From positions 34,819 to 98,818 of the forward strand of contig CAVPJD010000031.1 of assembly GCA_963705165.1 (NCBI GenBank): 64,000 nucleotides of DNA. Direction: 5' to 3'. Shown piece by piece: positions 2,647-28,243 of the stretch. This stretch comes from an uncultured delta proteobacterium. GTDB taxonomy: Bacteria; Desulfobacterota; Syntrophia; Syntrophales; UBA2192. The notes below the pieces were generated by a model. That model did no database searches, had not been told where the DNA came from, and worked only from the letters and a program-made list of their open reading frames with translations. Position numbers and translations under genes: made by a program. Each line of letters starts with the position of its first letter. Within the stretch, counting starts at the first letter, position 1.

Positions 2647-2777
2647 GCAGGGTCCAGGGTTCAGGGTATAGGGTCCAGGGAAAAATTAAAGCCCCGGGTG
2701 CTCAAGGCAGCCCGGGGCTTTCTGTCTGTTAGATGGTCCGTTCCTTTACCCTTTAGCCTTTAGCCTTTAGCCTGTAC
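2647..2777. repeat. Heptad-periodic two-arm intergenic element H1
   Basis: Left arm: gcagggt ccagggt tcagggt atagggt ccaggg. Right arm: cctttac cctttag cctttag cctttag cctgtac. The arms flank the gspE terminator hairpin. Confidence 0.8.
2688..2724. terminator. Intrinsic terminator hairpin between convergent genes
   Basis: Stem GCCCCGGG (2691-2698) / CCCGGGGC (2711-2718), with AAA before and TTT after. Confidence 0.7.
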
Positions 2778-2791
2778 TTTCTGCTTGCGCC

Positions 2792-3079
2792 CTACTGGCG
2801 TTCGTAAATCCGGATATCCGGATCCGCCATGAGGTAGGGCTTCAACTCTCCAACGACATCGTTGACGAACAGTGCGCTCTTTAAGTAGCTTTCTGCAGAA
2901 GCTCGCGAATCGAAGCCGTGAAGCACCTGCACATCCTCTTCCCGGAGGAGGAGGTCTTTGGACTCGGCGCCGGGAATCGTTGAGAGAAACGGCTGTTTGT
3001 ATTTTGAGTAGACCGCGCCGGCCTTGGGCAGGTCCGTCGCGGAGACCTTCATCGTGATCTCGAGATACGCTTTTTTCAT
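2792..3079 (-). CDS. Hypothetical small protein (95 aa)
   Basis: Clean ORF with AAGGAG RBS about 6 nt upstream of the ATG. No family recognised with confidence. Confidence 0.6.
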   Translation of the reverse strand: MKKAYLEITMKVSATDLPKAGAVYSKYKQPFLSTIPGAESKDLLLREEDVQVLHGFDSRASAESYLKSALFVNDVVGELKPYLMADPDIRIYERQ

Positions 3080-3124
3080 CTTTGTCTCCTTAACTTATTA
3101 GACAGGCAACAAAATACCGCAATA

Positions 3125-3191
3125 GCGTCATTCCCGCGAAAGCGGGAATCCACAAATGACTGGATACCGGATCAAGTCCGGTATGACATGG
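3125..3191. repeat. MITE-like double-hairpin repeat, family A (GTCATTCCCGCGAAAGCGGGAATCC type)
   Basis: Hairpins ATTCCCGC-gaaa-GCGGGAAT and ataccggatcaagtccggtat, bounded by gtcat...atgac. Related copies at 46412, 48771, 52458 and 63371. Confidence 0.75.
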
Positions 3192-3269
3192 TTGCAATGT
3201 TTAGTTGCCGCAGTAATAATTCAGAAAACACACTATACTAATGATACGAATACCCTTTACCCTGTCTTT

Positions 3270-4151
3270 CTACTTATACCCTTCGGGATAGAAATCATCC
3301 CAAACATTGGTCATCAGGCGCTTCAAGTCGGACCCGTCGAGCTTGATCGAGTATATCTCCCTTTTCGTCTCGTTGGGCGGGATGGCCGAAAAGAGGAGCC
3401 TCGCGTCATCGGCCGAGAAGGCTATGCCGCCTATGTTCTGGATGGTTGTCGCGTTCGGGCCGTAGGCGAAGCTGAAACGGTTGACGTGCTGAAGCGACGG
3501 GATACGGTTAATGTTGATGTAGTGAAGCATCATCGCTGCCAGTGGAATCTTCACCTCCGAGACCAGCAGGCTTCCGTCGTGGGAGACGACGGGCTGGCTG
3601 CCAGCCAGTATGGGCCCCGTGACCGTCCCCGTAGTGATATCTTGAAGATAGATTCCCACGGTATCGCCCGATCCTGTCCCGGTTCCGCGGCCGAACACGA
3701 GAGTGTTCGCGTTCCAGTAGTCATGGCCGAAGTTGTCCGTGACGCCCGCGGGGGGGGTGGTGATCTGCGTGAGCGACGTTCCGTCGGGCCTGATCCGGTA
3801 GATCTTGCCCTGGTTCCTGAAAATGATCCAGTCCCCGGCGGGGGCCCAGCGTGGACGGGTGCCCTGCGCCAGGTTCTTCTCGGTCGCGCCCGCGGCATCG
3901 CCCACCTGCCTCACGATGATGCGGTCGAACCCGCCGACGACCCTTTTGAAGGCCACCCACTTGCCGTCGTGCGAGACATCGGGCATCGAGTCGTCGAAGG
4001 CGGTCACAAACAGGGCCGCCGGCTGCAGCGGGCTTTCATCCGTGGCCGTCATCAATTGTCCCTTGCCCGTCTCCTGCGATACGTAGACGATGGAGGCGCA
4101 CCCCCACGTCATGAGAAGGCAGACCAACACGAGTACAATCATCTTTTTCAT
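3270..4151 (-). CDS. TolB-like (PD40) beta-propeller lipoprotein
   Basis: Signal peptide and lipobox (LLMTWGCAS). PD40-like repeats (DVSHDGKWVAF, WAPAGDWIIFRNQGKIYRIRPDG). AAGGAGG RBS. Confidence 0.7.
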   Translation of the reverse strand: MKKMIVLVLVCLLMTWGCASIVYVSQETGKGQLMTATDESPLQPAALFVTAFDDSMPDVSHDGKWVAFKRVVGGFDRIIVRQVGDAAGATEKNLAQGTRPRWAPAGDWIIFRNQGKIYRIRPDGTSLTQITTPPAGVTDNFGHDYWNANTLVFGRGTGTGSGDTVGIYLQDITTGTVTGPILAGSQPVVSHDGSLLVSEVKIPLAAMMLHYININRIPSLQHVNRFSFAYGPNATTIQNIGGIAFSADDARLLFSAIPPNETKREIYSIKLDGSDLKRLMTNVWDDFYPEGYK

Positions 4152-4360
4152 GGCATTCCTCCTTGGACCTGTGATGACGGCTGAGCTTGGTGTGATGGAT
4201 GACTGGGTCGTTGCCTGTATGCCGGCTGTCGAAAAATCAATTCGGAGTGAGCGGGTGGACTAATGACAGATGAACAAAAGGAATATCAGGACACGCTTAC
4301 CTATTAAGTAACGGCAAACCCTTTCCCCGTCAACAGAAAAATGAAGCTCCCTGCCGGTGA

Positions 4361-5059
4361 TCACCGGCCGTACACCGTCGGGTCCGTAATGCCGGCTTCG
4401 CGGAATCCCTTCTTCCGGAGAAGGCAGCTGTCGCAATCGCCGCAGGCCCTGCCCCGGGGGTCCGGGTCGTAGCAGCTGTGGGTGAGCCGGTAGTCGACAC
4501 CGAGTTCGGTGCCCGTCCGGATGATCTCGGCCTTTGTCATGTGGATGAGCGGGGTACGGATTGCGATTTTCATTTTTCCTTCGACGGCGGCCCTGATGGC
4601 AAGATTCGCCATGGCTTCGAAGGCAAGGATATATTCGGGCCGGCAGTCGGGGTAGCCCGAGTAGTCCACCGCATTGACGCCGATGAAGACGTCGGCTGCC
4701 TCCAGGACCTCCGCCCAGGCCAGGGCGTAGGACAGGAAGATGGTGTTGCGCGCCGGCACGTAGGTCACCGGGATTCCCGATGCGAGTTGCTCCTCGTTGC
4801 GGCCGTGGGGCACAGCGATGTCGGCCGTAAGGGCCGAGCCGCCGATCTTCCCGAGGTCGATCCGGATGACGAGGTGCTGCCGGGCGCCGAGAACGTCGGC
4901 TATTTTCCGCGATGCGTCCAGTTCCACGGCATGACGCTGTCCGTAATCGAAGCTCAGGCAGTAGAGTTCATACCCCTCACGTTTCGCCACGGCCATCGCC
5001 GTCGTGGAGTCGATGCCGCCGCTCGAAAGAATCACCGCTTTTCTCTTCCCTTTCATCAT
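4361..5059 (-). CDS. queC: 7-cyano-7-deazaguanine synthase QueC
   Basis: 232 aa. N-terminal [11 protein letters not shown]-loop and C-terminal [14 protein letters not shown] zinc motif. Confidence 0.92.
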
Positions 5060-5075
5060 CGCTCCCCCTGTGGGC

Positions 5076-5104
5076 CATTATGACGGGAAGCGCGCTTTTG
5101 TCAA
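5076..5104 (-). promoter_or_regulatory. Candidate sigma70 promoter for queC
   Basis: Minus strand reads TTGACA, a 16-17 nt spacer, then CATAAT/ATAATG, about 20 nt upstream of the queC start. Confidence 0.4.
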
Positions 5105-5195
5105 CGCCATCCGAGCCATGCCTTCCTTTACGGGGCCGCCGAATTGTGCTACAAACAGCAATCAATCGGTATCACCCAAGGAATCCACCAGCCCC

Positions 5196-7265: not shown

Positions 7266-7273
7266 CGCTTCGC

Positions 7274-7385
7274 GCAGGCATCAGGCTACAGGCAGCAGGC
7301 TTCAGGAAAAACGAGCGCATGTTTGCGGATCCCGGATACCGATACCCTCCCGCCTGTACCCTTGACCCTGTCCCCTGGACCCTGC
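7274..7385. repeat. Heptad-periodic two-arm intergenic element H2
   Basis: Left arm: gcaggca tcaggct acaggca gcaggct tcagg. Right arm: ggatacc gataccc tcccgcc tgtaccc ttgaccc tgtcccc tggaccc. Confidence 0.8.
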
Positions 7386-7401
7386 ATCGCGAATTTGCTG
7401 C

Positions 7402-7431
7402 TTGACAATTTTGTGCCGGGAAGGCTATAAA
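7402..7431 (+). promoter_or_regulatory. Candidate sigma70 promoter upstream of tRNA-Glu
   Basis: TTGACA (7402-7407), 18-nt spacer, TATAAA (7426-7431). Confidence 0.4.
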
Positions 7432-7493: not shown

Positions 7494-7569
7494 GTCCCCA
7501 TCGTCTAGTGGCCTAGGACACTGGCCTTTCACGCCGGCGACCGGGGTTCGACTCCCCGTGGGGACGCCA
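7494..7569 (+). tRNA. tRNA-Glu (anticodon UUC)
   Basis: 76 nt: GTCCCCATCGTCTAGTGGCCTAGGACACTGGCCTTTCACGCCGGCGACCGGGGTTCGACTCCCCGTGGGGACGCCA. Full cloverleaf, anticodon loop CTTTCAC, encoded CCA. Confidence 0.95.
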
Positions 7570-7577
7570 GAAAACAG

Positions 7578-11242: not shown

Positions 11243-11247
11243 AAGTA

Positions 11248-11340
11248 AGGGTATCGGGTATCGGGAAGGAAACAGATTTTTTCTATAAAATTTCTTCGTA
11301 CCTTCAGCCCCTATACCCTATACCCGTGACCCTAGACCCG
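11248..11340. repeat. Heptad-periodic two-arm intergenic element H3
   Basis: Left arm: aagggt atcgggt atcggga agg. Right arm: ccttcag cccctata ccctata cccgtga ccctaga cccg. The arms are largely complementary. Confidence 0.85.
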
Positions 11341-11377
11341 AAAAAAAGAGGCCCCTGAATCAGGGGCCTCTTTTTTT
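11341..11377. terminator. Bidirectional intrinsic terminator
   Basis: A7-GAGGCCCCTG-aat-CAGGGGCCTC-T7, between convergent pgm and the OmpA-like gene. Confidence 0.85.
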
Positions 11378-11424
11378 CGAAAGCCTCGGCCATCGGCTCT
11401 TCGCCTCCGGCCTTCGGGCTCAGT

Positions 11425-16434: not shown

Positions 16435-17310
16435 ATGACGTGGTTTCTGCTCTCCCTCACGGCCGCCCTGGGCCTGGCCACGGCGGATGCCCTGACGAAG
16501 CGCTTCTTCAGCGATCTGGCGCCCTACCGCATGGGGGTTGTGCGCATCCTGTCTACGGCCCCCTGGATGGTCCTGGCGCTTCTCTTCCTGCCCCGGGCCG
16601 TTCCGGATCAGACCTTCTGGCTTGCCATCGCCGCGGCGCTCCCCCTTGAGGTTTTCGCCTTTTTTCTCTACATGCGGGCCCTCAAGCTCTCGCCGCTTTC
16701 GCTCTCCCTGCCCTTTCTGGCCTTCACGCCCGTCTTCATGATCCTCACGGGCCGTCTCATCCTGGGCGAGGCGATCACGACGAGCGGCGTCCTGGGAATC
16801 CTCCTGATCGTCCTCGGGGCATACGTCCTCAATCTCTCGAAGATGAAGTCCGGGCTGCTGGGGCCCATCCGGGCTGTATTGCGCGAGCCGGGCTCCTGGA
16901 TCATGCTTCTCGTGTCGTTTATCTACTCGATCACGGCGCCCATCGGGAAGGTGGCCATCCTGCATTCCAACCCGTGGTTCTTCGCCGCCGTCTACAACCT
17001 GGTGCTCTCCGTGGTCATCGTCTCGCTCTGGCCCGTGGCTGCAGGCGGTGCGGGGGTGCGCGGCACTTTCAGCAAGCCCGGCCCCATGCTGCTCATAGGC
17101 CTCATGGCCGCCATGGAGAATTTTGCCCACATGATGGCCATCGCGCAGGTCGAGGCAGCCTACATGATCGCCGTCAAGCGCCTGAGCCTTCTGTTCGGGG
17201 TTCTCTACGGGGCGTGGTGGTTCGGGGAAGAAAACATCCGCGAGCGTCTGGCAGGCGCCGCGATCATGATCGCGGGCGTGTTCCTGATCCGCTGGGCACA
17301 GGGGGGGTGA
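16435..17310 (+). CDS. EamA/DMT-family transporter
   Basis: 291 aa with about 10 hydrophobic helices in a duplicated EamA-like pattern. Start abuts the patatin stop. Confidence 0.82.
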   Translation: MTWFLLSLTAALGLATADALTKRFFSDLAPYRMGVVRILSTAPWMVLALLFLPRAVPDQTFWLAIAAALPLEVFAFFLYMRALKLSPLSLSLPFLAFTPVFMILTGRLILGEAITTSGVLGILLIVLGAYVLNLSKMKSGLLGPIRAVLREPGSWIMLLVSFIYSITAPIGKVAILHSNPWFFAAVYNLVLSVVIVSLWPVAAGGAGVRGTFSKPGPMLLIGLMAAMENFAHMMAIAQVEAAYMIAVKRLSLLFGVLYGAWWFGEENIRERLAGAAIMIAGVFLIRWAQGG

Positions 17311-17317
17311 GCAAAAG

Positions 17318-17360
17318 GCCCGAGGAGCGAGGTTCGAGGTCTATTTCTGTCCTCGTTTCC
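17318..17360. repeat. Heptad-periodic element H4 (short right arm)
   Basis: Left arm: cccgagg agcgagg ttcgagg tc. After an 8-nt spacer comes a single gtcctcg unit. Confidence 0.55.
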
Positions 17361-17541
17361 AAAACCTTATTTTGAGCCGCCAGGCAAGCAAATCCATATT
17401 CACCAGGGCTTTGTAAAGGCATTACGTCTTAGATGTGATTTCACCTACCTATACGTAACAAAACACTGATTGACAGCTGATTGGCGCAGGGCCCATCATC
17501 TGCCTGTTTTTCTTGTGGATTCACAGAAAAAGGAGGCAGAG

Positions 17542-18672
17542 ATGCACGTTTCTGAGTTCAGCCTCAATCAGGCTTCGCTTTTGTCCGATGGGTTCTTTTC
17601 TGTCGATCCAATCGAGAACAGCCCACCTCGGATCGTCCCTTCTTATCCAAGTCACCATACCGAATCGAGCAGCGTCCTGAAGACGCTTCAGCGGATTCTG
17701 AACCGGCTCGGCAGGATGGGTCTGCCCGGAGCCGATCAGTTCGAAGCATTTCTCCGCCATGTCACCCGCCGGAACCGCAGGCCCCGTACGCTCTGCAGCC
17801 TGTGGCAATCCAACATGCTGTTTCTGTGCATGCTCAAGGATGCGGGCCGGCACGAGTTGGCTGGCATCAGCCGCGCTGACGTGGAGGCGTTCGTCGAGCG
17901 GGAACAGGACCGGGGGATCAAGATCACGACGATCCGGACGCGGCTCGTCTGTGTGTGCGCGTTCCTGCGGTACCTGGCCGAGGAGAAGGTCGTCTCCCCG
18001 GAGATCTTCGTGCGAAGGATCCAGCTGAAGCTGCCCGAGCGGCTGCCGCGGGCGATGGCGCCCGAGGATACGGCCAAGCTGCTTTCAGTCATTGATAATC
18101 CCGAGGACCGGACGATGATCCTGGTCCTGCTTCGGACGGGCCTGCGGATTGGCGAGCTTCTGCACACCAGGGTGACAGACGTCAACGTCCGGGAGCGCCG
18201 CATCGAGATCTACGAGGCGGAGAAGAACCGGCTGGGCCGTGTGGTGTACCTGAGCGAGGATGCGCTTTCGGCGTTGGGGATCTGGATGAGCAAACGAAAC
18301 GTCTTGAAGGAGTACCTGTTCTATGGACGTAGTGAGGATGGCCGGATGAGCTACAGCACGGCCCGGGCCCGGTTTGCCGGCTATCTCGGGAAGGCGGGGC
18401 TTGCAGATCGGGGCTATACGGTCCACACGCTTCGACACACCTTTGCGACGGAGCTTCTCAATGCCGGGATGCGCCTGGAGTGCCTGCAGGTGCTCCTGGG
18501 TCATCGAAGCATCGAGGAGACGCGGCGATATGCCTGCCTTACGGATAAGACACGGGAGGAAGAGTACTTCAGGGCCATGTCTGTAATCGAGAGGGGAAAC
18601 GACGATGACGGATGCGATCATCCACTGGCGGCGCTATCTGAAGAGGCGCAACTGCTCGCCCAACACGGTTAA
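17542..18672 (+). CDS. Tyrosine recombinase/integrase (XerC/D-like) 1
   Basis: C-terminal catalytic motifs HTLRHTFATELLNAGMRLECLQVLLGHRSIEETRRY. AGGAGG RBS before ATG 17542. Confidence 0.88.
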   Translation: MHVSEFSLNQASLLSDGFFSVDPIENSPPRIVPSYPSHHTESSSVLKTLQRILNRLGRMGLPGADQFEAFLRHVTRRNRRPRTLCSLWQSNMLFLCMLKDAGRHELAGISRADVEAFVEREQDRGIKITTIRTRLVCVCAFLRYLAEEKVVSPEIFVRRIQLKLPERLPRAMAPEDTAKLLSVIDNPEDRTMILVLLRTGLRIGELLHTRVTDVNVRERRIEIYEAEKNRLGRVVYLSEDALSALGIWMSKRNVLKEYLFYGRSEDGRMSYSTARARFAGYLGKAGLADRGYTVHTLRHTFATELLNAGMRLECLQVLLGHRSIEETRRYACLTDKTREEEYFRAMSVIERGNDDDGCDHPLAALSEEAQLLAQHG

Positions 18673-19483
18673 GAACTACCTGTGCGCGATCAGAAGCTTT
18701 GTGCTGTGGCTCGATGTGCCGATCGAGCACGTCACGCACTCCAAGGTCTCGCACTACATCGACGAGCTGATGAGGCGGCGCCTGAAGCCCAAGAGCATCA
18801 ACTGCCAGCTCAACGTCATCCGGCAGTTCTATCACTTTCTGCGGGACGAGGGCGTCCTGGACATCGCAAACCCGGTGAAAAACACGCATGCCCTGAAGAT
18901 GTCGCGGCCGCTGCCCCGGCACCTGAAGGACGAGCAGGTCGAGAGCTTCTTCCAGATCATCACTCGACCGCGCGACCGGGCCATGTTCATGCTGATGGTT
19001 CGCTGCGGGCTGCGGGTCGAGGAGGTCGCCCAGTTGACGCTCGGGGCTGTGGACTACAAACACCGGAAGCTTCTGATCGAGGACGGCAAAGGCGGAAAGG
19101 ACCGCATCGTGTATTTGAGTCAGGATGCCTGCCAGGCGCTTGTGGCCTATCTTCGGGTGCGGCCCTCATCGCGAACTCGTCGGATCTTTCTCGTGGAGAA
19201 GGGCCCTTGCACGGGCCAGCCGATCTCGATTCGCGGCATTCAGAAGCGCATGGAGCACTATGGCCGCAAGACGAAGCTTCGCGTCTCCTGTCATCAGCTG
19301 CGCCACACAATGGCCACGCAGCTGCTCAATGCCGATGCCGACCTGTGCACGATCCAGGACCTCCTCGGGCACAGCAACGTCAAAACCACGCAACGCTACT
19401 GCAGGGTGTCAAACCTGAAAGTGCAGCGGGATTACTTCAAGGCCATGGAGGCGATCATGAGACAAAACATAGACAGCACTTGA
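18605..19483 (+). CDS. Tyrosine recombinase/integrase (XerC/D-like) 2
   Basis: SAM-like N-domain. Catalytic HQLRHTMATQLL...LLGHSNVKTTQRY. Overlaps recombinase 1 by 68 nt. Confidence 0.9.
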   Translation: MTDAIIHWRRYLKRRNCSPNTVKNYLCAIRSFVLWLDVPIEHVTHSKVSHYIDELMRRRLKPKSINCQLNVIRQFYHFLRDEGVLDIANPVKNTHALKMSRPLPRHLKDEQVESFFQIITRPRDRAMFMLMVRCGLRVEEVAQLTLGAVDYKHRKLLIEDGKGGKDRIVYLSQDACQALVAYLRVRPSSRTRRIFLVEKGPCTGQPISIRGIQKRMEHYGRKTKLRVSCHQLRHTMATQLLNADADLCTIQDLLGHSNVKTTQRYCRVSNLKVQRDYFKAMEAIMRQNIDST

Positions 19484-19628
19484 TGAACAGGAAAAAGGAT
19501 GAGATGGTAAACAGGACTTAACAAACCAGAATCCGTGAGAAAAACAGACTTTGTTACGTATAGCACCTACAAGTATTCGCTTCCGGATCACGGCCGTTAC
19601 GAGTGATTACCGAGAGAAATAGACAAAA

Positions 19629-19657
19629 AAGGCATGGCCATTTCTGACCCTGCCTTT
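19629..19657 (-). terminator. Terminator hairpin of the substrate-binding protein gene
   Basis: aaggcatggccatttctgaccctgccttt, followed on the minus strand by T6. 28/30 identical to the hairpin at 41595-41624. Confidence 0.6.
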
Positions 19658-19668
19658 CAGTCGCTTTT

Positions 19669-20415
19669 TTATTTATAGGTTTTCAGAATCTTTTCCGTCG
19701 TGCCCTCCTTCTGCAAATCCGTGAGTGCATTTTCGACAGCTGCTATCACGTTTTGGGGCACTTGTTTGGTGAACATGATGTATTGATAAGCTGCATCAAA
19801 GGGTTTGTTCGCCAGGACGATCTGCTTCGAGAAACCACCATCTTTAATGTCCCATCCCAAACCGAGATCATGATAAAACACCAAATCAATCTCGCGCTCG
19901 CGCAGTTTCAACAGGCTTTCGTGAATCGTTGCAGCCTCCACTTGCCGAATGTCAGGCATTTTCGCGATCAACTCATTGATTGCGGCTCCGCGCAGCACTC
20001 CCACGCGCTTGCCCCGAACTGACATCTCCCCCGTATATTCAAAGGGATCAGAAGCTAACTTAGCGAACTGACCGCGGACTCCATAGACAGGAACGGATGC
20101 GAAGACGAAAGCCTTCTCACGGGCTGGGGATTTCATCAATCCTACAAATAGACTCATTTCATTGTTTTCCATCATCGTGTTGATCCGAGCCAATGAATAA
20201 GTTCCCGTTGGTTCGATGCGGATGTTCTGCTTTGCAAGCTTTTCATTTAGGGCATTGATCAAATCAATGCATATCCCTTTATTTTTTCCCCCATCTACAA
20301 AGTACCGTGGGGGACTATCTTGCTGATATCCAGTCCGGAGTACAGTTTCTGCGCTCCATCCAAAGCTTGTGAACACAAGCGTGCCCAGGACGACATACAT
20401 GATAATTCGTTTCAT
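19669..20415 (-). CDS. Periplasmic substrate-binding protein (SBP family 3-like)
   Basis: Signal peptide. Amino-acid-ABC-type binding-protein length and pattern. GGAGGG RBS. Low-GC region. Confidence 0.75.
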   Translation of the reverse strand: MKRIIMYVVLGTLVFTSFGWSAETVLRTGYQQDSPPRYFVDGGKNKGICIDLINALNEKLAKQNIRIEPTGTYSLARINTMMENNEMSLFVGLMKSPAREKAFVFASVPVYGVRGQFAKLASDPFEYTGEMSVRGKRVGVLRGAAINELIAKMPDIRQVEAATIHESLLKLREREIDLVFYHDLGLGWDIKDGGFSKQIVLANKPFDAAYQYIMFTKQVPQNVIAAVENALTDLQKEGTTEKILKTYK

Positions 20416-20471
20416 GATAGTGCCCTCCTTCCTTGTGACTTATTGATTAAGTAGGCTTTTAAGATGGGTAG

Positions 20472-20969
20472 TTATTTAACCCGCTCCCACACAATATCTA
20501 ATTTTCTGAGCTTGCCATCTAGCGCTCCGATTGTAGGTTCCGCGCTGTGTATCATCCGATTCCCCTCGAACCTGACGGTCCGCACTTGGACGGTGCCATT
20601 CCAGCTTTCATTCCAGGAAATATCCACCTTGATCTTAAGGGTCTTCCCATCGAAGGTGTAAGTCCCACCGTAGGCAATGATGGTCTTATAGAGCTCCACC
20701 AGGTCCTTGTCAGTCATCTTTGTCACATCAGGGATATTGGGCCGCTTGTCAGTAATTATACAAAGCACACGGCCGTCCCTCCCATACATGATATAGCCTT
20801 TGGGTGCCTTTCCGAATACATCCGACGTTTCACCCGTTGCCACAATCGTCCTCTTCCAGCTGACCAATTGCCATGTCCCGTACAGCTCATCTGCGGCAAG
20901 AGCTGAAGCGGATACGAACAGCACCAAGAGCAATCCCACGAGAAGCGATATTGCCTTCGTCGAAGTCAT
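20472..20969 (-). CDS. Lipocalin-like domain protein (secreted)
   Basis: YGTWQLVSWKRT...GKAPKGYIMYGRDGRV pattern of lipocalin-like domains. Signal peptide. GGAGGA sits 7 nt before ATG 20969. Confidence 0.72.
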   Translation of the reverse strand: MTSTKAISLLVGLLLVLFVSASALAADELYGTWQLVSWKRTIVATGETSDVFGKAPKGYIMYGRDGRVLCIITDKRPNIPDVTKMTDKDLVELYKTIIAYGGTYTFDGKTLKIKVDISWNESWNGTVQVRTVRFEGNRMIHSAEPTIGALDGKLRKLDIVWERVK

Positions 20970-21346
20970 GGTCGTGTCCTCCATTCTGTTAGAAAGTCGG
21001 TCTATTGAAGTCAGGAGAGGGCGCTTCAAGAAAAGTAGATAGAAAAGGCCCCAATGGGTGAATCCCCAAAGGGCCGCTCACATGGGCACCTTCCGGTAAC
21101 TCCTATACATACTGCACACCAGAAGGTTAAAGGGGAAATAGATGGATTGATGGATTTCGGATGGGTCTTTTTCGAGAAATATGCTCTTAATTATTTGGAG
21201 AGTCAAGGAGATAAATCGCTATAGGAAGAGCCGTCTTTTGAAAACGCAAGTGCATGATTTACGGGTGAAATGGGGTATTTCAAGGGAAGAGCTTAAAAAC
21301 ACGAGTACAGGAAGAAAGAGACCTTGTCGGGATTTCGTTTACCCGA

Positions 21347-22570
21347 CTATTTAAATCGGTTGAAGACTGCGTGATCAAGGATGATCTGGGCTGCACGCCG
21401 TGCCCCATCAGTGCGTATCTTCGCATGAGTTACCGCACGACCGATATTTTCGACGATCGCATCCGCTAGTAAGGAGGGGGTCGTTTGTCCTTGGGTCATT
21501 TTCACGCCTGCCCCTTGCCGAGACAGGCGATTAGCAATGATAATTTCTTGTTCAGCATGGCCTTCAATGGGGAAGAAAAGGAAAGGTCGTCGCAGAGCAG
21601 TTATCTCTATTGTTGTTGTACCTCCTCCTTGCACGATGGCAAGGTCACAGACGGCTAAATGCTTGTAAAGCTCCGGTACCATGCCATGCCGCTCGATACC
21701 TTGAGGAACATCGAGCGTAGCAGGGTCTATTCGCGGCCCACACACCAGAACCATTCTTAAGCCAGGAAGGCGCTGCGAGGCTATCGGGTAAGCACGGCCG
21801 CAGAGCTCGAGCAGCGAACGTCCCACCGCTGTGCCACCGACTGTACAGACCACGAGCGGTTCAGACCCATAGCCTAGCGCTGTGCTAACGCTTGCCCTGT
21901 CCTTGATCTGGTCGAGGTCGAAGCCAAGTGGATAACCGACAAATTCTATATGGTTCTCCGCATATCGGCGTCTGTTTGGCAGAAACATTCCAAATGGCTG
22001 GTCAGGCACATCTTCCAGTTCACCGAAGAAGATGGCTTTGTTGTTCTGCTTTGCCGTGATCCGTCCCTCCTGTGACCAGACAAAATTCAGTCCCCAGGCG
22101 CCGAGCCGCTCGATTGGATTGTTCGTGGTCTTATCCAGGCCGTAGAAGTCATACATCATTATGAATGGTATATCGTCTGGCAACACCTTCATCCCTAAAA
22201 CGTATGCGACGATGACCTCGTAAGTTTCATTGCCAATAATGGCATTATATTGGCCACACTTTGCCGCTTCACCAAGCACCCTGGCATTGTGGAGCCAGCA
22301 TCCGAGTGCGCGATATACATACTTTGTGAGGCTGAGATGTCCCCCATGGGCTGCCGCTTCAGCCTGATCCGTCTCGCATTGGTACTTCATAAATTCAGGC
22401 GCTAGGATCTCTCCTTTGGCGGCTAGCACATCAGAGGCGGGCGACCCGGCCAGCCAATAAAGTTCTATGCGGGGTTCCATTGCACGCAGTTGGTGGGCAA
22501 TAGCCAGATCGCGAGCTACATGTCCAAGCCCGATAGACCCGCTCACATAAAGCATGCGGATGGCATTCAT
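21347..22570 (-). CDS. Glycosyltransferase (GT1/GT28 MurG-like fold)
   Basis: N-terminal GSIGLGHVARDLAIA and a C-terminal nucleotide-sugar-binding-like GGGTTTIE. GGAG RBS. Confidence 0.65.
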   Translation of the reverse strand: MNAIRMLYVSGSIGLGHVARDLAIAHQLRAMEPRIELYWLAGSPASDVLAAKGEILAPEFMKYQCETDQAEAAAHGGHLSLTKYVYRALGCWLHNARVLGEAAKCGQYNAIIGNETYEVIVAYVLGMKVLPDDIPFIMMYDFYGLDKTTNNPIERLGAWGLNFVWSQEGRITAKQNNKAIFFGELEDVPDQPFGMFLPNRRRYAENHIEFVGYPLGFDLDQIKDRASVSTALGYGSEPLVVCTVGGTAVGRSLLELCGRAYPIASQRLPGLRMVLVCGPRIDPATLDVPQGIERHGMVPELYKHLAVCDLAIVQGGGTTTIEITALRRPFLFFPIEGHAEQEIIIANRLSRQGAGVKMTQGQTTPSLLADAIVENIGRAVTHAKIRTDGARRAAQIILDHAVFNRFK

Positions 22571-22661
22571 TCTAAACTCCTGCTGTTTGATTGCCTACCT
22601 ACCACTTACGACATTGGGAATTTGACATGGCAATAAATATTAGCATTTGGCCAAAATTCAA

Positions 22662-22698
22662 AAGCCTCCAAGAAGGCTTTTACTCCTCTTGGAGGCTT
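22662..22698 (-). terminator. Orphan 12-bp perfect hairpin (terminator-like on minus strand)
   Basis: AAGCCTCCAAGA, 13-nt loop, TCTTGGAGGCTT. The minus-strand tail is TTTGAATTTT. Confidence 0.45.
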
Positions 22699-23490
22699 CA
22701 CAGGACCATTTTTTGGTAACCCCACCTTATCATTTTACGCCTCAAACGGTTAGAGGTTGGGTTGGGGGCTACTGCATAGGTAGTATGGGAAACAGGGTTT
22801 TAAAATACTCTCAATGTGCACAACAGGGACAATGCAGAACCGTTTCTGACCGTGCCCGCATGAGCGGCGTATTCGCTTCCATATTGTTTAGTAAAATGGT
22901 GACGTATTGGACGTATACACTTGCGAAAATGCTTTATCAGCGAATGCAGGAAAATGAAGATCCTAACGAAGAGGCGTCTGAATTGAAAAAGCTAAAAAGA
23001 AGGGATAGTAGAAGAGTAATTTTCTTAAGAAGAATATACACTTGATTACTCAATTGTCAATTCGTCTAATGCTTAACCATATCAACAGGCTACACCCTTG
23101 ATTTCCACTTGAAGTGTTGAATAAATGAGAAATTAGGATAAGTAACGCTTCCAGGAAGGCAGGGGCAAGGATTCGGCTAGAATCCACCGCACGGATCGAA
23201 TCCCACATCAGCCCTATTTTATTACAGTTTTAAGATAAGTGGGGCCGGGTTCTGGGTCGACTTCATCAGCACCGTCCGGCCCCTTGCCTTTCCCTGCCGA
23301 GGGCGTATATTAATTATAGAAGAGTGAAAGCCCGCTTACCCCTGGGGTCCATCTGCCGATCCGGATCCCTTCTCGTTGCACATCCTCTTTCGGTCGTTGC
23401 CGGTTTCTCCATTCCTACAGATAGTGATTGGCTTCTTTCCGGTTTCCCCGGGCGGGCATATTGCCCCGGCGGGCTCGAGGAGGTGTCGCC

Positions 23491-23649
23491 ATGACATTGA
23501 CGTGTGTCGAATGCGGAAGGCTCGTGTCGAAGCTCAACAATGAGAAAAAGTGCGAGGAGTGCGCCAAGAAGGACGAATCCATGAAGTCCTACTTCACGAA
23601 ACTCTTCTTCATCAACCCGGGCTGCGCGAGACTGGTGCCGGTAACCTGA
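23491..23649 (+). CDS. Possible small zinc-ribbon protein (52 aa)
   Basis: MTLTCVECGRLVSKLNNEKKCEECAKK: a CxxC...CxxC pair. GAGGAGG sits 7 nt upstream of ATG 23491. Confidence 0.4.
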   Translation: MTLTCVECGRLVSKLNNEKKCEECAKKDESMKSYFTKLFFINPGCARLVPVT

Positions 23650-23755
23650 TCCTACTGCACTTTGTTGCCTGTAGTTTATTCCACTACTCGGCCTTTCTGG
23701 CTGAAGGGGAATTTCCGGGCCGCAGCCTGAAAGATCATAAAGGAGGTAGCTGGTC

Positions 23756-24010
23756 ATGAAAGACGCATCCATGGATATTTTGCGGTTCTGGAAGACGCAA
23801 TGGGAAGCTTACATGAAGACAATGGCGGCCATGCAGGAACAGGGGGAGACTATGCTGGAGATGATCCAGAAAAGTGGTGTGCTGCAAGAAGGGTCACTAA
23901 ATATGGTCAGGGCGTGGGCGAAAAAATACAAGGAAATCCAGAAGTCTTATCTTGATGCGGTTGAAGACCACTTTCAGAAACTCGACGATATTATTGGGGG
24001 TGCTCCCTGA
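23756..24010 (+). CDS. Hypothetical small helical protein (84 aa)
   Basis: AAGGAGG RBS 8 nt upstream. Terminator follows. No family assigned. Confidence 0.55.
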   Translation: MKDASMDILRFWKTQWEAYMKTMAAMQEQGETMLEMIQKSGVLQEGSLNMVRAWAKKYKEIQKSYLDAVEDHFQKLDDIIGGAP

Positions 24011-24044
24011 GGTGGACAAAATTTGTTAGAGAACGGACAGGACG

Positions 24045-24080
24045 AAGGCAGAGTCGATTGGCTCTGCCTTTTGCTTTTCT
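24045..24080 (+). terminator. Intrinsic terminator
   Basis: AAGGCAGAG-tcgattgg-CTCTGCCTT followed by ttgcttttct. Confidence 0.75.
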
Positions 24081-24229
24081 GCCGATTATTGATTGTAATC
24101 TTCTGCTCTGCAGAAAAATCCATTTTATCGAGTACAGGAAGCACTTGATTAGGACCATCAACGAGCGGGGGCTGCCATCATGATCGCCCGGGTATTCCTG
24201 ATCCGCGGGCACAGGCGGGGTGAACAGAA

Positions 24230-24302
24230 GGTTCGAGGATAAAGGCTCCAGGATCGAGGTTTTTTCTTTGTCCCTCAGTCCTCGTGCCTCGGACCTCGAA
24301 CC
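24230..24302. repeat. Heptad-periodic two-arm intergenic element H5
   Basis: Left arm: ggttcga ggataaa ggctcca ggatcga gg. Right arm: ccctcag tcctcgt gcctcgg acctcga acc. The outer 9 bp GGTTCGAGG / CCTCGAACC are perfectly complementary. Confidence 0.8.
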
Positions 24303-24308
24303 TTTTTT

Positions 24309-24935
24309 CTATGCCAGTTCCTTCCGGCTGGACAGCAGTCTCTGCAGAGCCGTCAGGTTCGTGAGTACGGCAAGGATGACGATCGCCCCCTTGAGGGTGC
24401 AGTCCTGGCAGCCTCCCAGGAGGTAATGATTGATCGGGCCGTTGAGGACCGTCCCGGCGATGAGCAGGATGATGCGCTCGGGGCGCTGCATGAGGCCCCT
24501 GAATTCCTTCTGCCCCAGGCCCTCGGCACGGGCCTTCACGTAGCTCACCATGATGGAGCCCATGAGGGCGAGCATTACCGTGATGAACATCCAACCGCTG
24601 TTGAAGTAGAGCATCAGCCCGAAGTAGACGAAGAACTCCGAGCAGCGGTCGAGGGTGGAATCCAGGAGTGCGCCGAAGCGCGAGGCCTTGCCCGACAGGC
24701 GCGCCACGGTTCCGTCGAGGGGGTCCATGGCGGCCGAAAGCCACAGGACGAACCCGCCCAGGAAGATGGACCCCGTCGCAAAGAGCATCCCGGAGACGAA
24801 GGACAGGAGCATGCCGACGACGGTGATGTGGTTGGGCGAGATGCCGGCCTTCACAAGCGGCACGGATAACTTCTCGGCCAGCGCGTAGCCACGCTTTTCC
24901 ATCCTCCGCCGGAAGCTGCCTTCCTCGTACGGCAT
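24309..24935 (-). CDS. CDP-alcohol phosphatidyltransferase family protein (PgsA-like)
   Basis: Signature DPLDGTVARLSGKASRFGALLDSTLD. Start is ATG 24935 (GAGGG upstream) or GTG 24944. Confidence 0.85.
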   Translation of the reverse strand: MPYEEGSFRRRMEKRGYALAEKLSVPLVKAGISPNHITVVGMLLSFVSGMLFATGSIFLGGFVLWLSAAMDPLDGTVARLSGKASRFGALLDSTLDRCSEFFVYFGLMLYFNSGWMFITVMLALMGSIMVSYVKARAEGLGQKEFRGLMQRPERIILLIAGTVLNGPINHYLLGGCQDCTLKGAIVILAVLTNLTALQRLLSSRKELA

Positions 24936-25035
24936 CGATCTCACGCCCTCATCGGTTCAATCATAACCTTCAAAGCCCCGGCACGCACGGAGTATAGGGA
25001 ATCCGCGGGGTGCTGTCCAGCGAAAACAGGCGGAA

Positions 25036-25138
25036 GCGGCGTGTCGCGGGTAGCGGGTAGCGTGTCGGGGAAATAGGGGGATTTTCTGTCGGCTGTCCCC
25101 TCTTCACTGGCCACTGGTCACTATACCTGGCCCACAGG
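25036..25138. repeat. Heptad-periodic two-arm intergenic element H6
   Basis: Left arm: gcggcgt gtcgcgg gtagcgg gtagcgt gtcgggg. Right arm: cactggc cactggt cactata cctggcc cacagg. Confidence 0.75.
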
Positions 25139-25139
25139 T

Positions 25140-26708
25140 TCACTGAGGGGTTAGCCGCTCCAACGATTGAAGCGCGTTGCGAGCTTCTTCCCTGCTCCCG
25201 AAGGGACCCACCAGGATGCGGTACCAGTCCTTCTGAGGCGCAACGCGTCTTTTCACGATTTCGACCCGGCCAAGATCGGAGCCGATCTTCCCGACATAGT
25301 CCCGTGCTTCACGGGACGTCATGAACGTGGCGGCATGGATGCCGAACGATCCGTCCGGGCGTTTCACGAGACGAGCTTTCCCCACGGCCTGCGGCAGAAG
25401 GACCTGACTGCCGGCCCTGACGAGATCGACGTCCGCGATCTCCGGGTTTGATTCCAGGATACAATCCAGGACGGTTGCGTTCACGAGCCCGTAATGTCGG
25501 GTCGCGATGGACGAGAGGGTCTCCCCCTCCTTAACCGTGAGCTCGTTGACAGGAACATTTGCTTCTGTCGTTTCCTGCGCGACCGATGCCGGTGCCGGGG
25601 CGGCAGGGGGTGCAGGTTGGGCTTCCGGTTTCTCAGCCGGCAAGCCGGGCGCTTGCGCTCCCTGCGTGGACGGCGCCTTGGCTACCTCGTCTGCTTCGGA
25701 GACTTTCTGGCTCGGCGCCGGCTGGACCACAGCGCTCCCGGGCGCAATGCCGGATTTAGGGCTCAGATAGTAGCTTCCCATGAAAACCCCGGCCACCGCG
25801 ACGGCCAGGGCGGCATAAAGCCACGGGGACCGAAGGGCCGACTTCGCTGCGCCCGCGGTGACAGACGAGGAGGATGCCGCCCGGATCAGAGGCGCCGCAG
25901 CCTTGCGGGCATCTCCAACGGTCCCTGCGGATACGGGCTTCTCGGATCGCTCCGAGCCCAGGGTCAGGGCGCGGTCACACAGGGCATTGATGTTTTGGGG
26001 AACCCCGCCGGCATATTTGCAGATGGACGCCAGCGCCTCCGGCGTGAAGACATCGCCGCTGCTTCGGCCGGCCCAGGCCAGCCGATGTTCGATGTACTGC
26101 AGGGATTCATCATGGCCGATGGGAAGAAGACTGTGGAGGATCTGTATGCGCTGCCTGATCTGCCTCAGGTGCTTCGAATTCAGCCTCCGGCTCAGTTCGG
26201 GTTCACCGGCGATGACGATCTGGATCAGTTTGGTCCTGCTCGTTTCAAAGTTGGACAGGAGCCGCAGTTCTTCGATGATGTCATCCTTCATCCTGTGCGC
26301 GTCGTCGAGAAAGATCACGAGATTCTGGCCTTTTTTCAGACACTGGGTCAGGTGTTCATAGAGCTCGTGGAGCATGGAGCCCTTGGTTACGTCTTTGGCG
26401 GCGCCTTTGGCAGCGCGCAGACCCAGCTTTTCCATGAGCTCCTTCAGCAGCGTGTAATACTGGTCATGCGATTGTGAGATCAGGGCAACCTGCGTCCGCT
26501 CGTCGAGCTGATCCATCACCTGCCGGAAGAGCGTGCTCTTCCCCATACCCTGCTCGCCGAAGATGACGATATAGCCCTTTCGTTCCCTGATGCCGTAGAG
26601 CATCAATGCCAGCGCTTCCTTGTGCGTCTCCGCCCGGAAGAAAACCTCGCGATCCGCTCCCTCCCCGAAAGGCATCCGGCTGAACCCGTAGTATTGCCCG
26701 TAATCCAT
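25140..26708 (-). CDS. ExeA/GspA-like AAA ATPase fused to LysM and SPOR peptidoglycan-binding domains
   Basis: MDYGQYYGFSRMPF start typical of ExeA. Walker A GEQGMGKST. LysM-like LTVKEGETLSSIATRHYG. C-terminal SPOR-like WYRILVGPFGSREEARNAL. Confidence 0.8.
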   Translation of the reverse strand: MDYGQYYGFSRMPFGEGADREVFFRAETHKEALALMLYGIRERKGYIVIFGEQGMGKSTLFRQVMDQLDERTQVALISQSHDQYYTLLKELMEKLGLRAAKGAAKDVTKGSMLHELYEHLTQCLKKGQNLVIFLDDAHRMKDDIIEELRLLSNFETSRTKLIQIVIAGEPELSRRLNSKHLRQIRQRIQILHSLLPIGHDESLQYIEHRLAWAGRSSGDVFTPEALASICKYAGGVPQNINALCDRALTLGSERSEKPVSAGTVGDARKAAAPLIRAASSSSVTAGAAKSALRSPWLYAALAVAVAGVFMGSYYLSPKSGIAPGSAVVQPAPSQKVSEADEVAKAPSTQGAQAPGLPAEKPEAQPAPPAAPAPASVAQETTEANVPVNELTVKEGETLSSIATRHYGLVNATVLDCILESNPEIADVDLVRAGSQVLLPQAVGKARLVKRPDGSFGIHAATFMTSREARDYVGKIGSDLGRVEIVKRRVAPQKDWYRILVGPFGSREEARNALQSLERLTPQ

Positions 26709-26837
26709 ATCCGTTGCTCCGCTCCCCGTTGAAAGAAAGACATGCGTCGACGGGCGGGACTTTCGCCCGCCGTCCCGTCGTGAACCCATTTTTTCATTAG
26801 TGGAAAATCCAAGCGTGAAGTCAACAAAAAAGAAACT

Positions 26838-28145
26838 TCAGACCTTCACGTGCAGCACGGGCAACGGCAGGTGCTTCCTCTTCGTCTCGCCGTAGAAGGT
26901 TGTCTGCTCGCGCACCGTCGGGGTGCCCCGCCTGCCCTTCCCGAACTTGTCGATGGGGTGGGCCGCGCCCAGGTGCAGGCAGTGCTTGCCGAACTTCTCG
27001 CGCATCTCGTCGACGGCCTCGTAGAGGTCGCGCACCTTGTCGGCCCGCATGGGGCTCTCGAAAAGGCTGTACTGGACGTTCCGGTCGGGCATCAGATCCA
27101 CGAGGATGACGCCCGTGGCGCGGTAGAGGTCCTCCCTGCGGTAAAGCTCATCGAAGAGCCCCCGCAGGACATCGCACAGCTCGAGGGGGTGGGCCGAGGG
27201 GCGGGTGAGCTTCATCTCGCTTCCGCGGTACTCGAAGTCGTTCATCTTGAGAAAGCCGATGAGCTTGCGCGGCGCAAGGTGATAGCGCCTTGCCTTCATG
27301 CAGGCCGACTCGAGGTTCCGGAGCAGTTGCGCAAAGAGATACTCGGGGTCGCTCGAGGACGGCGCGAAGGTCTTCGTCTTGCTGATGGAGGCGTAGTCGC
27401 TCTTCTCCTCGGCCGTGACGGGGTAGACCGATTCGCCGCGAAGCTCGCGCCAGATCTCCTGGCCGGGCTTGGTGAACTTCTTTTTCACCACGGCCTCCGG
27501 GAGCCTCGCGAACTCCAGGGCCGTCCTGATCCCCATCTTCCAGAGATAGTTCGTCGTGGCGGGGCCGATCCCCCAGATCTTCTCGACGGGCAGCTCCCCG
27601 ATGAACTCGGGAATCCGACGTCCCGGGATCAGGGTGAGGCCCGCGGGCTTCTTGTGCTTGGAGGCCACCTTGGCGAGCACCTTGGAGAGCGAAAGGCCCA
27701 CGGAGACCGTGATCCCCAGCTCGCGCTCGACCTCGCGCTTGATGTTGAAGGCAATCGTCTCGTAGGAGGAGTGCAGGGCCCGTCGCAGGCCCGTGAGATC
27801 GGCGAAGGCCTCATCGATGGAGTACTCCTCCACCTGGGGCGTAAAGCGACGGACGATGTTGTACATCCGCCGCGAAAAGAGGCTGTAGGTCTCGTAGTCC
27901 GAGGGCAGAACGATGAGCCCCGGGCAGATCTTTTTCGCCTCGTGCAGGGGAACGCCCCGCTTGACCCCCAGGGCCTTGGCGGCGTAGCTCGCGCAGGCCA
28001 CGATCCCCCGCTCGCCCCCCGTGATGAGGGGCTTGCCCTTGAGCTCGGGGTGGATCGCCTCCTCGCAGGACGTGAAGAAGGCATCGCCGTCGATGTGGAG
28101 AATGGCCTGCGGCCAGGAGCGGAGATTGACTAGAATTTCGTTCAT
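26838..28145 (-). CDS. Y-family DNA polymerase (DinB/UmuC-like)
   Basis: ILHIDGDAFFTSCEEA catalytic N-terminus, 435 aa. Directly downstream of lexA on the same strand. Confidence 0.9.
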   Translation of the reverse strand: MNEILVNLRSWPQAILHIDGDAFFTSCEEAIHPELKGKPLITGGERGIVACASYAAKALGVKRGVPLHEAKKICPGLIVLPSDYETYSLFSRRMYNIVRRFTPQVEEYSIDEAFADLTGLRRALHSSYETIAFNIKREVERELGITVSVGLSLSKVLAKVASKHKKPAGLTLIPGRRIPEFIGELPVEKIWGIGPATTNYLWKMGIRTALEFARLPEAVVKKKFTKPGQEIWRELRGESVYPVTAEEKSDYASISKTKTFAPSSSDPEYLFAQLLRNLESACMKARRYHLAPRKLIGFLKMNDFEYRGSEMKLTRPSAHPLELCDVLRGLFDELYRREDLYRATGVILVDLMPDRNVQYSLFESPMRADKVRDLYEAVDEMREKFGKHCLHLGAAHPIDKFGKGRRGTPTVREQTTFYGETKRKHLPLPVLHVKV

Positions 28146-28154
28146 AACGAAATT

Positions 28155-28243
28155 GGCTCAAGGCTTAAGGCGTAAGGCTCAAGGCGAAAAAAGACAACAT
28201 CTTCCGTCTTGAGCCCTATGCCCTTAGCCTTTAGCCCTATGCC
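28155..28243. repeat. Heptad-periodic two-arm element H7 (between lexA and the polymerase gene)
   Basis: Left arm: ggctcaa ggcttaa ggcgtaa ggctcaa ggcg. Right arm: tcttgag ccctatg cccttag cctttag ccctatg cc. Confidence 0.8.

Follow-up and report, generated by a model that had tools for sequence, protein, structure and literature searches.

Heptad elements of the window

In this study, we analysed a stretch of 64,000 nucleotides from an uncultured Syntrophales-like bacterium (assembly GCA_963705165.1, contig CAVPJD010000031.1, positions 34,819 to 98,818 of the forward strand), called the window below, for intergenic elements built of tandem 7-nt units, or heptads. All loci were inspected, and the heptad-periodic two-arm elements reported in a preliminary description of this DNA were confirmed far above chance; they are gene-boundary elements of two convergent tandem-heptanucleotide arrays. 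Genes were mapped from GC content at third codon positions (GC3) and from Pfam, and the elements are listed here with their neighbours, the left and right arms of a locus being abbreviated in the text as L and R (1L, 2R).

Locus 1, flanked by convergent stop codons at 2630 and 2792
2648-2682, + strand: purine-rich arm of five units, CAGGGTC CAGGGTT CAGGGTA TAGGGTC CAGGGAA, 18 nt past the stop codon of a T2SSE-type ATPase gene (855-2630)
2691-2718: centre, a GC hairpin GCCCCGGG..CCCGGGGC with an A-run 5' and a T-run 3' on both strands
2740-2774, - strand: second arm of five units, CAGGCTA AAGGCTA AAGGCTA AAGGGTA AAGGAAC, 17 nt past the stop codon of the convergent open reading frame (ORF) 2792-3079, with a coding-like GC3 of 0.71
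Locus 2, a helicase stop codon followed by a promoter-like site and tRNA-Glu
7275-7309, + strand: purine-rich arm of five units, CAGGCAT CAGGCTA CAGGCAG CAGGCTT CAGGAAA, 10 nt past the helicase stop codon (7265)
7339-7384, - strand: second arm of six units, CAGGGTC CAGGGGA CAGGGTC AAGGGTA CAGGCGG GAGGGTA, ending about 20 nt before TTGACA-N17-TATAAA, upstream of tRNA-Glu (7494-7569)
Locus 3, between the convergent phosphoglucomutase (PGM) and OmpA genes
11247-11267, + strand: purine-rich arm of three units, AAGGGTA TCGGGTA TCGGGAA, 5 nt past the PGM stop codon (11242) and matching GGGNATC
11300-11341, - strand: second arm of five to six units, TCGGGTC TAGGGTC ACGGGTA TAGGGTA TAGGGGC
11339-11379: beside the locus, a perfect 20 + 20 nt palindrome, AAAAAAAGAGGCCCCTGA / TCAGGGGCCTCTTTTTTT
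11382-11420, - strand: additional arm of five units, CCGAAGG CCGGAGG CGAAGAG CCGATGG CCGAGGC, between the OmpA-family stop codon (11425) and the palindrome
Loci 4 and 5, between the convergent EamA and CDP-alcohol phosphatidyltransferase genes
17315-17342, + strand: lone arm of locus 4, four units, AAGGCCC GAGGAGC GAGGTTC GAGGTCT, 5 nt past the EamA stop codon and cut off by the adjoining integrase island
24228-24262, + strand: purine-rich arm of locus 5, five units, AAGGTTC GAGGATA AAGGCTC CAGGATC GAGGTTT, after a displaced EamA 3' end
24270-24304, - strand: second arm of locus 5, five units, AAGGTTC GAGGTCC GAGGCAC GAGGACT GAGGGAC, 5 nt past the stop codon of the CDP-alcohol phosphatidyltransferase gene (24309-24944)
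Locus 6, a - strand stop codon followed by TGGACA-N17-TATACT
25039-25073, + strand: left arm, GCGTGTC GCGGGTA GCGGGTA GCGTGTC GGGGAAA, on the - strand directly upstream of TGGACA-N17-TATACT (25019-24991) and kept in the relative L208
25094-25135, - strand: right arm of CACTGGN-type units as read on the + strand, beginning at the stop codon of an AAA_22/SPOR gene (25140)
Locus 7, between lexA-like and dinB-like genes on the - strand
28153-28187, + strand: purine-rich arm of five units, TTGGCTC AAGGCTT AAGGCGT AAGGCTC AAGGCGA, 8 nt from the dinB-like start codon (28145, - strand)
28211-28245, - strand: second arm of five units, GAGGCAT AGGGCTA AAGGCTA AGGGCAT AGGGCTC, 3 nt past the stop codon of the lexA-like S24 peptidase gene (28249)
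Outlying hairpin
39082-39135: AGGTTCGAAG..CCTCGAACCT, with no heptad periodicity

Tandem Repeats Finder returned period-7 arrays at 2648-2680, 2743-2773, 7275-7306, 7353-7384, 11249-11265, 11309-11325, 25046-25062 and 28155-28185, covering both sides of loci 1, 2 and 3 and a single side of loci 6 and 7. A lag-k autocorrelation scan with a threshold of at least 18 of 24 matches, controlled by composition-preserving local shuffles, gave eight segments at lag 7 vs 0.1 in the shuffles, none at any of lags 5, 6, 8, 9, 10 and 11, and three and five segments at lags 12 and 14; the excess of periodicity is specific to 7 and its multiple 14. At the lower threshold of at least 16 of 24, all 12 lag-7 segments fell inside the loci of the preliminary description and none in the 29-64 kb part. 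When both strands were searched for AGGN4AGGN4AGGN4AGG with at most one mismatch, 24 matches were found, 23 of them within the loci, against 0.36 expected, and the matches of left arms were always on the + strand and those of right arms always on the - strand. Exact matches numbered 15 in the window vs 1 in 1.37 Mb of other bacteria (87 loci).

All loci except locus 6 yield a shared consensus. Across 53 register-aligned units, the seven positions read N, A (83%), G (98%), G (98%), C/G (77%), T (60%) and A/C (75%, with G only twice). Since units from different loci converge in this way, N-A-G-G-S-T-M, read towards the centre, is one degenerate heptad of which the cores of individual loci are subtypes. 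The arms of locus 6 are periodic and built of unrelated units (GCGGGTA, CACTGGN), outside the NAGGSTM set. Arm length is narrow, with exactly five units in 8 of 11 arms and a range of 3-7, and the purine content towards the centre is 60-74% in every arm; the two arms of a locus lie 7 to 57 nt apart. At least four G3 tracts are present in only 3 of 14 arms (1L, 2R and 3R, with 5-6 each), and seven arms have none or one, the unit types CAGGCNN, AAGGCTN and CGAGGNN carrying GG only. We also considered whether the arrays supply back-up stop codons in three frames, an idea that arose because a 7-nt period shifts the reading frame at each unit; it was rejected, as all frames are stopped in only 2 of 14 arms and five arms contain no stop codon at all.

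The outer edge lies 3-18 nt from a stop codon in 11 of 15 arms; for the remaining four (2R, 3R, 6L and 7L), the neighbouring feature is a downstream start codon, a promoter-like site or a further arm. Three of the junctions are convergent (loci 1, 3 and 4/5), and promoter-like sites follow loci 2 and 6. In the centre of the elements, an A-run is always followed by a short hairpin or an AT-rich stretch and then by a T-run. Locus 1 has a centre that resembles an intrinsic terminator acting in both directions, and the terminator listing for the window has a - strand site in it (2708-2691); the palindrome at 11339-11379 is a predicted bidirectional terminator of the classical kind and is retained in relatives.

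Most of the preliminary description stands. The period-7 tandem architecture agrees with Tandem Repeats Finder, the lag-7 scan and the AGG-N4 counts; the strand-symmetric order of G-rich arm, spacer and C-rich arm agrees with the strands of the AGG matches; and the placement at gene 3' ends or between cistrons and the enclosure of a classical terminator by one element are likewise upheld. Its count of eight loci needs revision, with six being two-armed, locus 4 having a single arm and the hairpin at 39083-39133 lacking heptad periodicity; it had also overlooked the arm at 11382-11420. Its statement that the core differs between loci holds for the unit subtypes and not for the consensus, which all loci except locus 6 have in common. 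The 39083-39133 hairpin does share AGGTTCGA..TCGAACCT (outer stem and units) with locus 5, and its membership of the family is doubtful.

At all six two-armed loci the G-rich strands point at each other, and among adjacent array pairs from the window and 83 loci of other bacteria, the purine- or G-rich arm came first in 12 of 12. When viral contigs were scanned for AGG repeated five times with period 7, more than 120 loci were found; counting only adjacent arrays within 120 nt, 35 were ordered G-then-C vs 2 C-then-G. A hairpin alone does not predict this polarity, because both arm orders fold equally well. With the purine-rich arm first, the non-template strand that a polymerase first encounters is purine-rich whichever side it comes from, and the pyrimidine-rich arm is always on the side of any downstream start codon; we infer that this pyrimidine-rich 3' arm may give a weak RNA:DNA hybrid.

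The EamA 3' end is the insertion site of a 6.8-kb integrative island (17470-24222, about 49% GC), which has two tyrosine-recombinase genes (17470-18672 and 18605-19483). About 80 nt of the EamA end and the first heptad arm are duplicated across it (17251-17340 vs 24165-24259, about 80-85% identity), and the displaced EamA 3' end beyond the island carries the complete two-arm element of locus 5; the uninterrupted EamA junction, that is, the empty island site, was seen in the relative L208. At locus 7 (28145-28251), a 103-nt hairpin separates the lexA-like and dinB-like genes and places their stop and start codons at the two sides of its stem base, and the dinB-like gene has no Shine-Dalgarno sequence upstream of its ATG.

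Relatives and viral contigs

Protein searches placed the nearest named relatives of the DinB and PGM proteins in Syntrophales, Syntrophaceae and Smithella metagenome-assembled genomes (MAGs). Three contigs, L208-L210, with 90-95% PGM identity and a GC content of 0.60-0.61, are syntenic with the window and likewise rich in heptad arrays. At the PGM/OmpA junction, the succession of an arm, an A-run, a GC hairpin, a T-run and a further arm is present in 4 of 4 genomes. The OmpA-side arm is identical at 34-37 of 39 positions (87-95%) in the relatives, compared with third-codon identities of 0.73-0.78 in PGM; being more alike than third-codon positions, it points to constraint on this arm. On the PGM side, the relatives have other units (TCCGGAN, AGCCTGA) in varying numbers, and the window has the whole GGGTATC...CCCTATA element instead of a single arm.

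Similar exchanges were found at other junctions. At the EamA junction, L208 has 5 + 5 units of AAAGGNN/CCTTNNN where the window has CGAGGNN, so that the AGG core and the 5 + 5 layout persist and the other unit positions differ, and L210 has CAAGCCN units with another hairpin. At the helicase junction, the right arm of L209 is of the CCCTGGA type, like that of the window, and its left arm consists of CNGTGAC. Locus 7 is absent at about 90% DinB identity, and because other hairpin repeats stand in its place, the comparison suggests that hairpin-forming repeats may be interchangeable at this position. In more distant relatives (72-74%), no arrays were found within 64 kb. The arrays are thus lineage-enriched, some being maintained and others remodelled unit by unit, a turnover as would be expected for slippage-prone repeats under some selection.

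One of these alternative repeats belongs to a second intergenic family of the window, a palindrome TCCTCTCCC-N5-GGGAGAGGA within a conserved unit of about 47 nt that resembles repetitive extragenic palindromes (REPs). Its copies lie at 28930-28976, 29324-29370, 29382-29404, 30176-30222, 32449-32495, 36800-36822 and 37451-37496, with the pyrimidine arm first, opposite in polarity to the heptad elements; in the relatives L081 and L083, a hairpin of this type occupies the place of locus 7. Two copies bracket the Pfam-matching part (about 29004-29310) of a DUF559 (Vsr-like endonuclease) ORF at 28888-29580 with a low GC3 of 0.58, and the ends of this ORF are doubtful for that reason. Further repeats in the window are long direct repeats at 32214-32281 / 39333-39400 (68 nt, 97%) and 37515-37563 / 39145-39193 (49 nt, 98%), which connect the cinA-recA-alaS region with a low-GC stretch at about 37-40 kb, and a tandem repeat at 58605-58870 (period 111 nt, 2.4 copies, 77% matches) in a setting of 65% GC and overlapping long ORFs on both strands.

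Dense two-arm AGG-heptad elements were also observed on the IMG/VR contigs L195, L176, L148 (2964-5917), L114 and L143, each with its own unit variant (GAGGTTA, AAGGYYM, ATAGGYN, CAGGRGN and TAAGGAT). In L195 and L176 they separate structural genes of phages (tape measure, portal, ClpP-like protease) and start 1-23 nt past a stop codon, and in L148 the copies have a common centre, GGCCGCTGGTTCGGCC. No close relative of the element-rich viral contigs was found among cultured phages. Two heptad-armed elements of a Nitrospira MAG (L058, 15112-15252 and 16070-16200), which lie about 0.8 kb from each other, have one centre sequence, oppositely oriented. In a Syntrophobacteraceae MAG (L002, 11721-11832), a gap of 100 N directly after the PGM stop codon is flanked by repeats of about 60 nt, and its assembly was probably broken by a repeat-rich junction.

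Arm pairing and candidate explanations

We propose, with slightly less than even confidence, that they are slippage-built modules of the 3' untranslated region (UTR) or of terminator flanks, working like the REPs and bacterial interspersed mosaic elements (BIMEs) of enterobacteria. Arrays of 7-nt units would arise and change through replication slippage and would be kept as the transcript-level part of a two-way 3'-end module, each purine-rich array forming the final stretch of the adjoining gene's 3' UTR. Where a separate central terminator is present, as at locus 1 and the PGM/OmpA junction, the arrays would flank it and complementarity would be unneeded; where none is present, as at loci 5 and 7, both arrays would pair into one long hairpin. 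As proposed for REP/BIME elements, such a hairpin would attenuate read-through from both sides and shield the upstream mRNA from 3' exonucleases.

The folding results fit this division in part. Loci 1, 5 and 7 fold as RNA into long hairpins on both strands (z = -4 to -8), with z = -4.7 and -6.3 and a TTTTTT after the stem on the + strand for the arms of locus 5, and -45 to -50 kcal/mol and z = -7.9 and -6.3 for those of locus 7; the folds of loci 2 and 3 are marginal. Helices consist of stretches of 3-5 bp, in which AGG pairs with CCU, interrupted by periodic internal loops. A GC-rich hairpin with a U-tract is present at the locus 1 centre, at 11339-11379 and in the arm hairpin of locus 5 on the + strand, and loci 2, 6 and 7 lack this combination on that strand. 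The arm pairs that are not complementary are those with a separate central structure. Outside the window, folding gave z = -3 to -12 for two-arm heptad elements from Chloroflexi, Acidobacteriota, Nitrospira and Thermoanaerobaculia, and in a set of 38 AGG-type pairs taken from the window and from viral contigs, 27 had the cognate arm in the top 10% for complementarity.

Pairing is less specific when the arms of different loci are compared. The preliminary description had held that the arms are partly complementary and that arms pairing no better than random ones would speak against it, which was found in part: the cognate arm was the best partner at only three of six loci. Complementarity is real at loci 3, 5 and 7 and no better than between loci at 1, 2 and 6. 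Thus, 1L reaches -59 kcal/mol with 2R vs -33 with its own partner; the repeat finder gave 85% complementarity between 2647-2679 and 7353-7385, with 2R not complementary to its own partner, and 1L is 81% complementary to 3R. A strict hairpin was rejected as a general explanation on this cross-locus result. Taken together, hairpin potential is typical of the class without being required at each locus.

Several of these and other observations weigh against a hairpin or terminator module. The arms of locus 6 are not complementary and give no hairpin (z > 0), and the cognate arms of loci 1, 2 and 6 pair no better than arms from elsewhere. Neither the 7-nt period nor the purine-first order is explained by hairpin function, and the polarity could not be derived from canonical terminator stems, since the terminators listed for the window show both polarities by eye. 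The lexA-like and dinB genes are 7 nt apart in the relative L084, so locus 7 probably lies inside an operon and counts against an efficient terminator, and similar elements are found where portal, protease and tape-measure genes of phages adjoin, a setting in which efficient termination would do harm. Arrays are missing from two tandem junctions in this region, each about 200 nt long, so that the elements, though common, are not obligatory.

An unlikely explanation is that a sequence-reading factor oligomerises on each arm as on a phased platform, the two arms being independent convergent sites. The factor might bind double-stranded DNA, act as a roadblock, or be a ring protein on single-stranded RNA. 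Polymers of ribbon-helix-helix proteins, for example the omega repressor, form along contiguous 7-bp heptads, mycobacteriophage stoperators offer an analogy for a roadblock, and HutP is a ring-shaped single-stranded RNA binder that reads a trinucleotide every 7 nt. A platform of this kind would account for the common NAGGSTM with its nearly invariant AGG, the interchangeability of arms between loci seen in the complementarity of 1L to 2R (85%) and 3R (81%), the narrow arm size of five units (8 of 11, and five also in the class 3 sites of Geobacter), the strict polarity, the variable inter-arm distance of 7-57 nt, the conservation of one arm beyond synonymous sites and the AGG kept between the window and L208. 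However, the lineage uses unrelated units at equivalent places (TCCGGAN, AGCCTGA, CNGTGAC, GCGGGTA, CAAGCCN) and other phyla use yet others, so that one specific factor cannot read them all; no candidate protein was identified, and the arms are nearly always paired, even at tandem junctions, which independent sites do not need. A further reading, which we regard as a long shot, is that the purine-first, five-unit array would be a general gene-boundary signal shared across several phyla and phages and read by a conserved machine, with the 7-nt period reflecting the geometry of that machine rather than polymerase slippage; possible readers are the 30S subunit (anti-Shine-Dalgarno with AGG), Rho (phased CCU units of the distal arm) or an oligomeric protein.

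It is quite unlikely that the arrays are functionless by-products, in which 7-nt slippage is mutationally favoured and arrays accumulate in tolerant non-coding DNA. The abundance of heptamers among intergenic repeats in prokaryotes (Mori et al., 2019; Mrazek, 2007, as cited elsewhere), the change of unit number and type between close relatives, the loss of locus 7 at about 90% protein identity and the lack of arrays within 64 kb in more distant relatives are all consistent with it. Mutation of this kind fits poorly with a polarity of 12 of 12 and 35 vs 2, the pairing of arrays, their narrow length, shared consensus and placement against stop codons, an OmpA-side arm conserved at 87-95% vs 73-78% at synonymous sites, or two long intergenic gaps nearby without arrays. 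Very unlikely, in our assessment, is a G-quadruplex (G4) or R-loop on the non-template strand or the RNA that pauses or ends transcription, the reading proposed for repeats of Xanthomonas and Nostoc. The G-rich strand does run 5' to 3' towards the centre, which makes GC skew positive along any incoming transcription; GGGAATC repeats with the same post-stop placement form G4 in vitro (Rehm et al., 2015; PMC4692102), and 1L, 2R and 3R have the necessary tracts. Nevertheless, only 3 of 14 arms have four G3 tracts, which led us to reject the G-quadruplex as the unifying feature, while seven arms have at most one, many units are GG-only, and the TCCGGAN and CAAGCCN units of relatives have no G excess. 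We consider it highly improbable that the elements are non-autonomous mobile elements, like REPINs or MITEs (miniature inverted-repeat transposable elements), whose arms are transposase-bound inverted ends. Such an origin would explain why arms from separate loci nearly duplicate each other (1L and 2R have GCAGGGTCCAGGG in common), why an entire two-arm element seems to have been inserted where the PGM/OmpA junction otherwise has one arm, why copies in L148 and L058 have conserved centres, and why ISGme8 and ISGme9 lie at a fixed distance from the Geobacter sites (Aklujkar et al., 2009; PMC2700814). Within the window, however, no two elements align beyond the heptad core and the centres are entirely different; target-site duplications or shared termini were not seen by eye, with no systematic test made, and no matching transposase was found among the scanned genes of the window, a search that does not exclude one elsewhere in the genome.

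Comparison with known systems

REP/BIME elements of enterobacteria lie at gene 3' ends and between cistrons, often convergent genes, and form hairpins in the transcripts of both strands. They are multicopy and lineage-specific with fast turnover, and protection of mRNA 3' ends and attenuation of read-through have been proposed for them; how they affect translation depends in part on closeness to the stop codon. Each REP is a copy of one conserved 20-40 nt palindrome linked to REP-associated tyrosine transposases (RAYTs), and REPs have neither tandem heptads nor purine-first polarity, whereas the elements of the window share only the heptad consensus, with unrelated centres and no single conserved palindrome. 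Bidirectional intrinsic terminators lie between convergent stop codons and are strand-symmetric, with an A-run 5' and a U-run 3' of the hairpin. Such a terminator is found in locus 1 and beside locus 3, but canonical ones have no heptad arrays, and most arms of the window have no U-tract after a stem. With respect to MITEs, no alignable full-length copies were found in the window and no flanking duplications were seen by eye at the loci. In Rfam, only tRNA-Glu passes the gathering score in the window, so that the Rfam check proposed in the preliminary description found no match; the sub-threshold matches over loci 3 and 7 are to generic microRNA-hairpin models only.

Tandem intergenic heptanucleotides that are abundant in particular lineages are also known as the short tandemly repeated repetitive (STRR) sequences of heterocystous cyanobacteria and as the TAACTGA repeats of Beggiatoaceae. 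These are mostly single direct arrays, mainly upstream of start codons, and their units are different; one inverted case was reported among 170 sets, in a Beggiatoa genome (MacGregor, 2015; PMC4679880). The STRR units CCCCAGT, TTGGTCA and CAACAGT do not match those of the window, and the protein relatives of the window are of the Syntrophales type. Mori et al. (2019) ranked tandem heptamers first in abundance among the intergenic repeats of prokaryotes and saw "no clear clue" to what they do; our literature search for a solved function of tandem heptamers found none. The heptad pairs of the window and its relatives are a compact, well-behaved example of this commonest class of prokaryotic intergenic repeats (Mori et al., 2019). 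Any explanation has to accommodate their polarity, five-unit arms, placement at stop codons and terminators, one conserved arm among swapped neighbours and occurrence between phage genes. This leaves the classification unchanged, and its value is that the question "why seven?" becomes testable.

The preliminary description did not recognise the inverted two-arm form, which has in fact been published twice (Aklujkar et al., 2009; Rehm et al., 2015), so that the window is a further case of a known, functionally unexplained kind. In Geobacter metallireducens, arrays of tandem 7-, 8- and 9-nt units are paired on opposite strands as "putative global regulator binding sites" of classes 1-3, class 3 having five heptanucleotides per site; they were read as putative sites for integration host factor (IHF) or HU, and ISGme8 and ISGme9 are inserted near them with a constant spacing (Aklujkar et al., 2009; PMC2700814). 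The variable distance between arrays, the intergenic multicopy occurrence, the five units per site in class 3 and a host in the former Deltaproteobacteria are shared with the window. In contrast, the Geobacter units are MTYCTGA and 8-/9-nt types, and copies within a class are alike enough for BLAST.

The closest counterparts are the GGGAATC repeats of Xanthomonas, which are strongly intergenic, form 70 and 75 convergent opposite-strand array pairs per genome and have their G-rich strand no more than 50 bp beyond a stop codon (Rehm et al., 2015; PMC4692102). Their lengths and sequences vary between related species while the single or paired type is retained, and, despite G4 formation in vitro, their function was left undetermined (Rehm et al., 2015). 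As in Xanthomonas, the window has at least three head-to-tail 7-nt units per array and convergent G-rich arrays at stop codons, and only its locus 3 (GGGTATC) fits the GGGNATC motif. It differs in the NAGGSTM unit with several subtypes in one genome, in arms that mostly carry GG rather than GGG (3 of 14 being quadruplex-competent), in a modal arm of five units vs four, and in its host, an uncultured Syntrophales-like bacterium. Therefore, the elements of the window belong to the architecture described by Rehm et al. (2015) and not to the G4 motif family (GGGNATC/GGGGAYT, with at least four G3 tracts), and they add to it a new host lineage, a new unit consensus and arms that are mostly incompetent to form quadruplexes.

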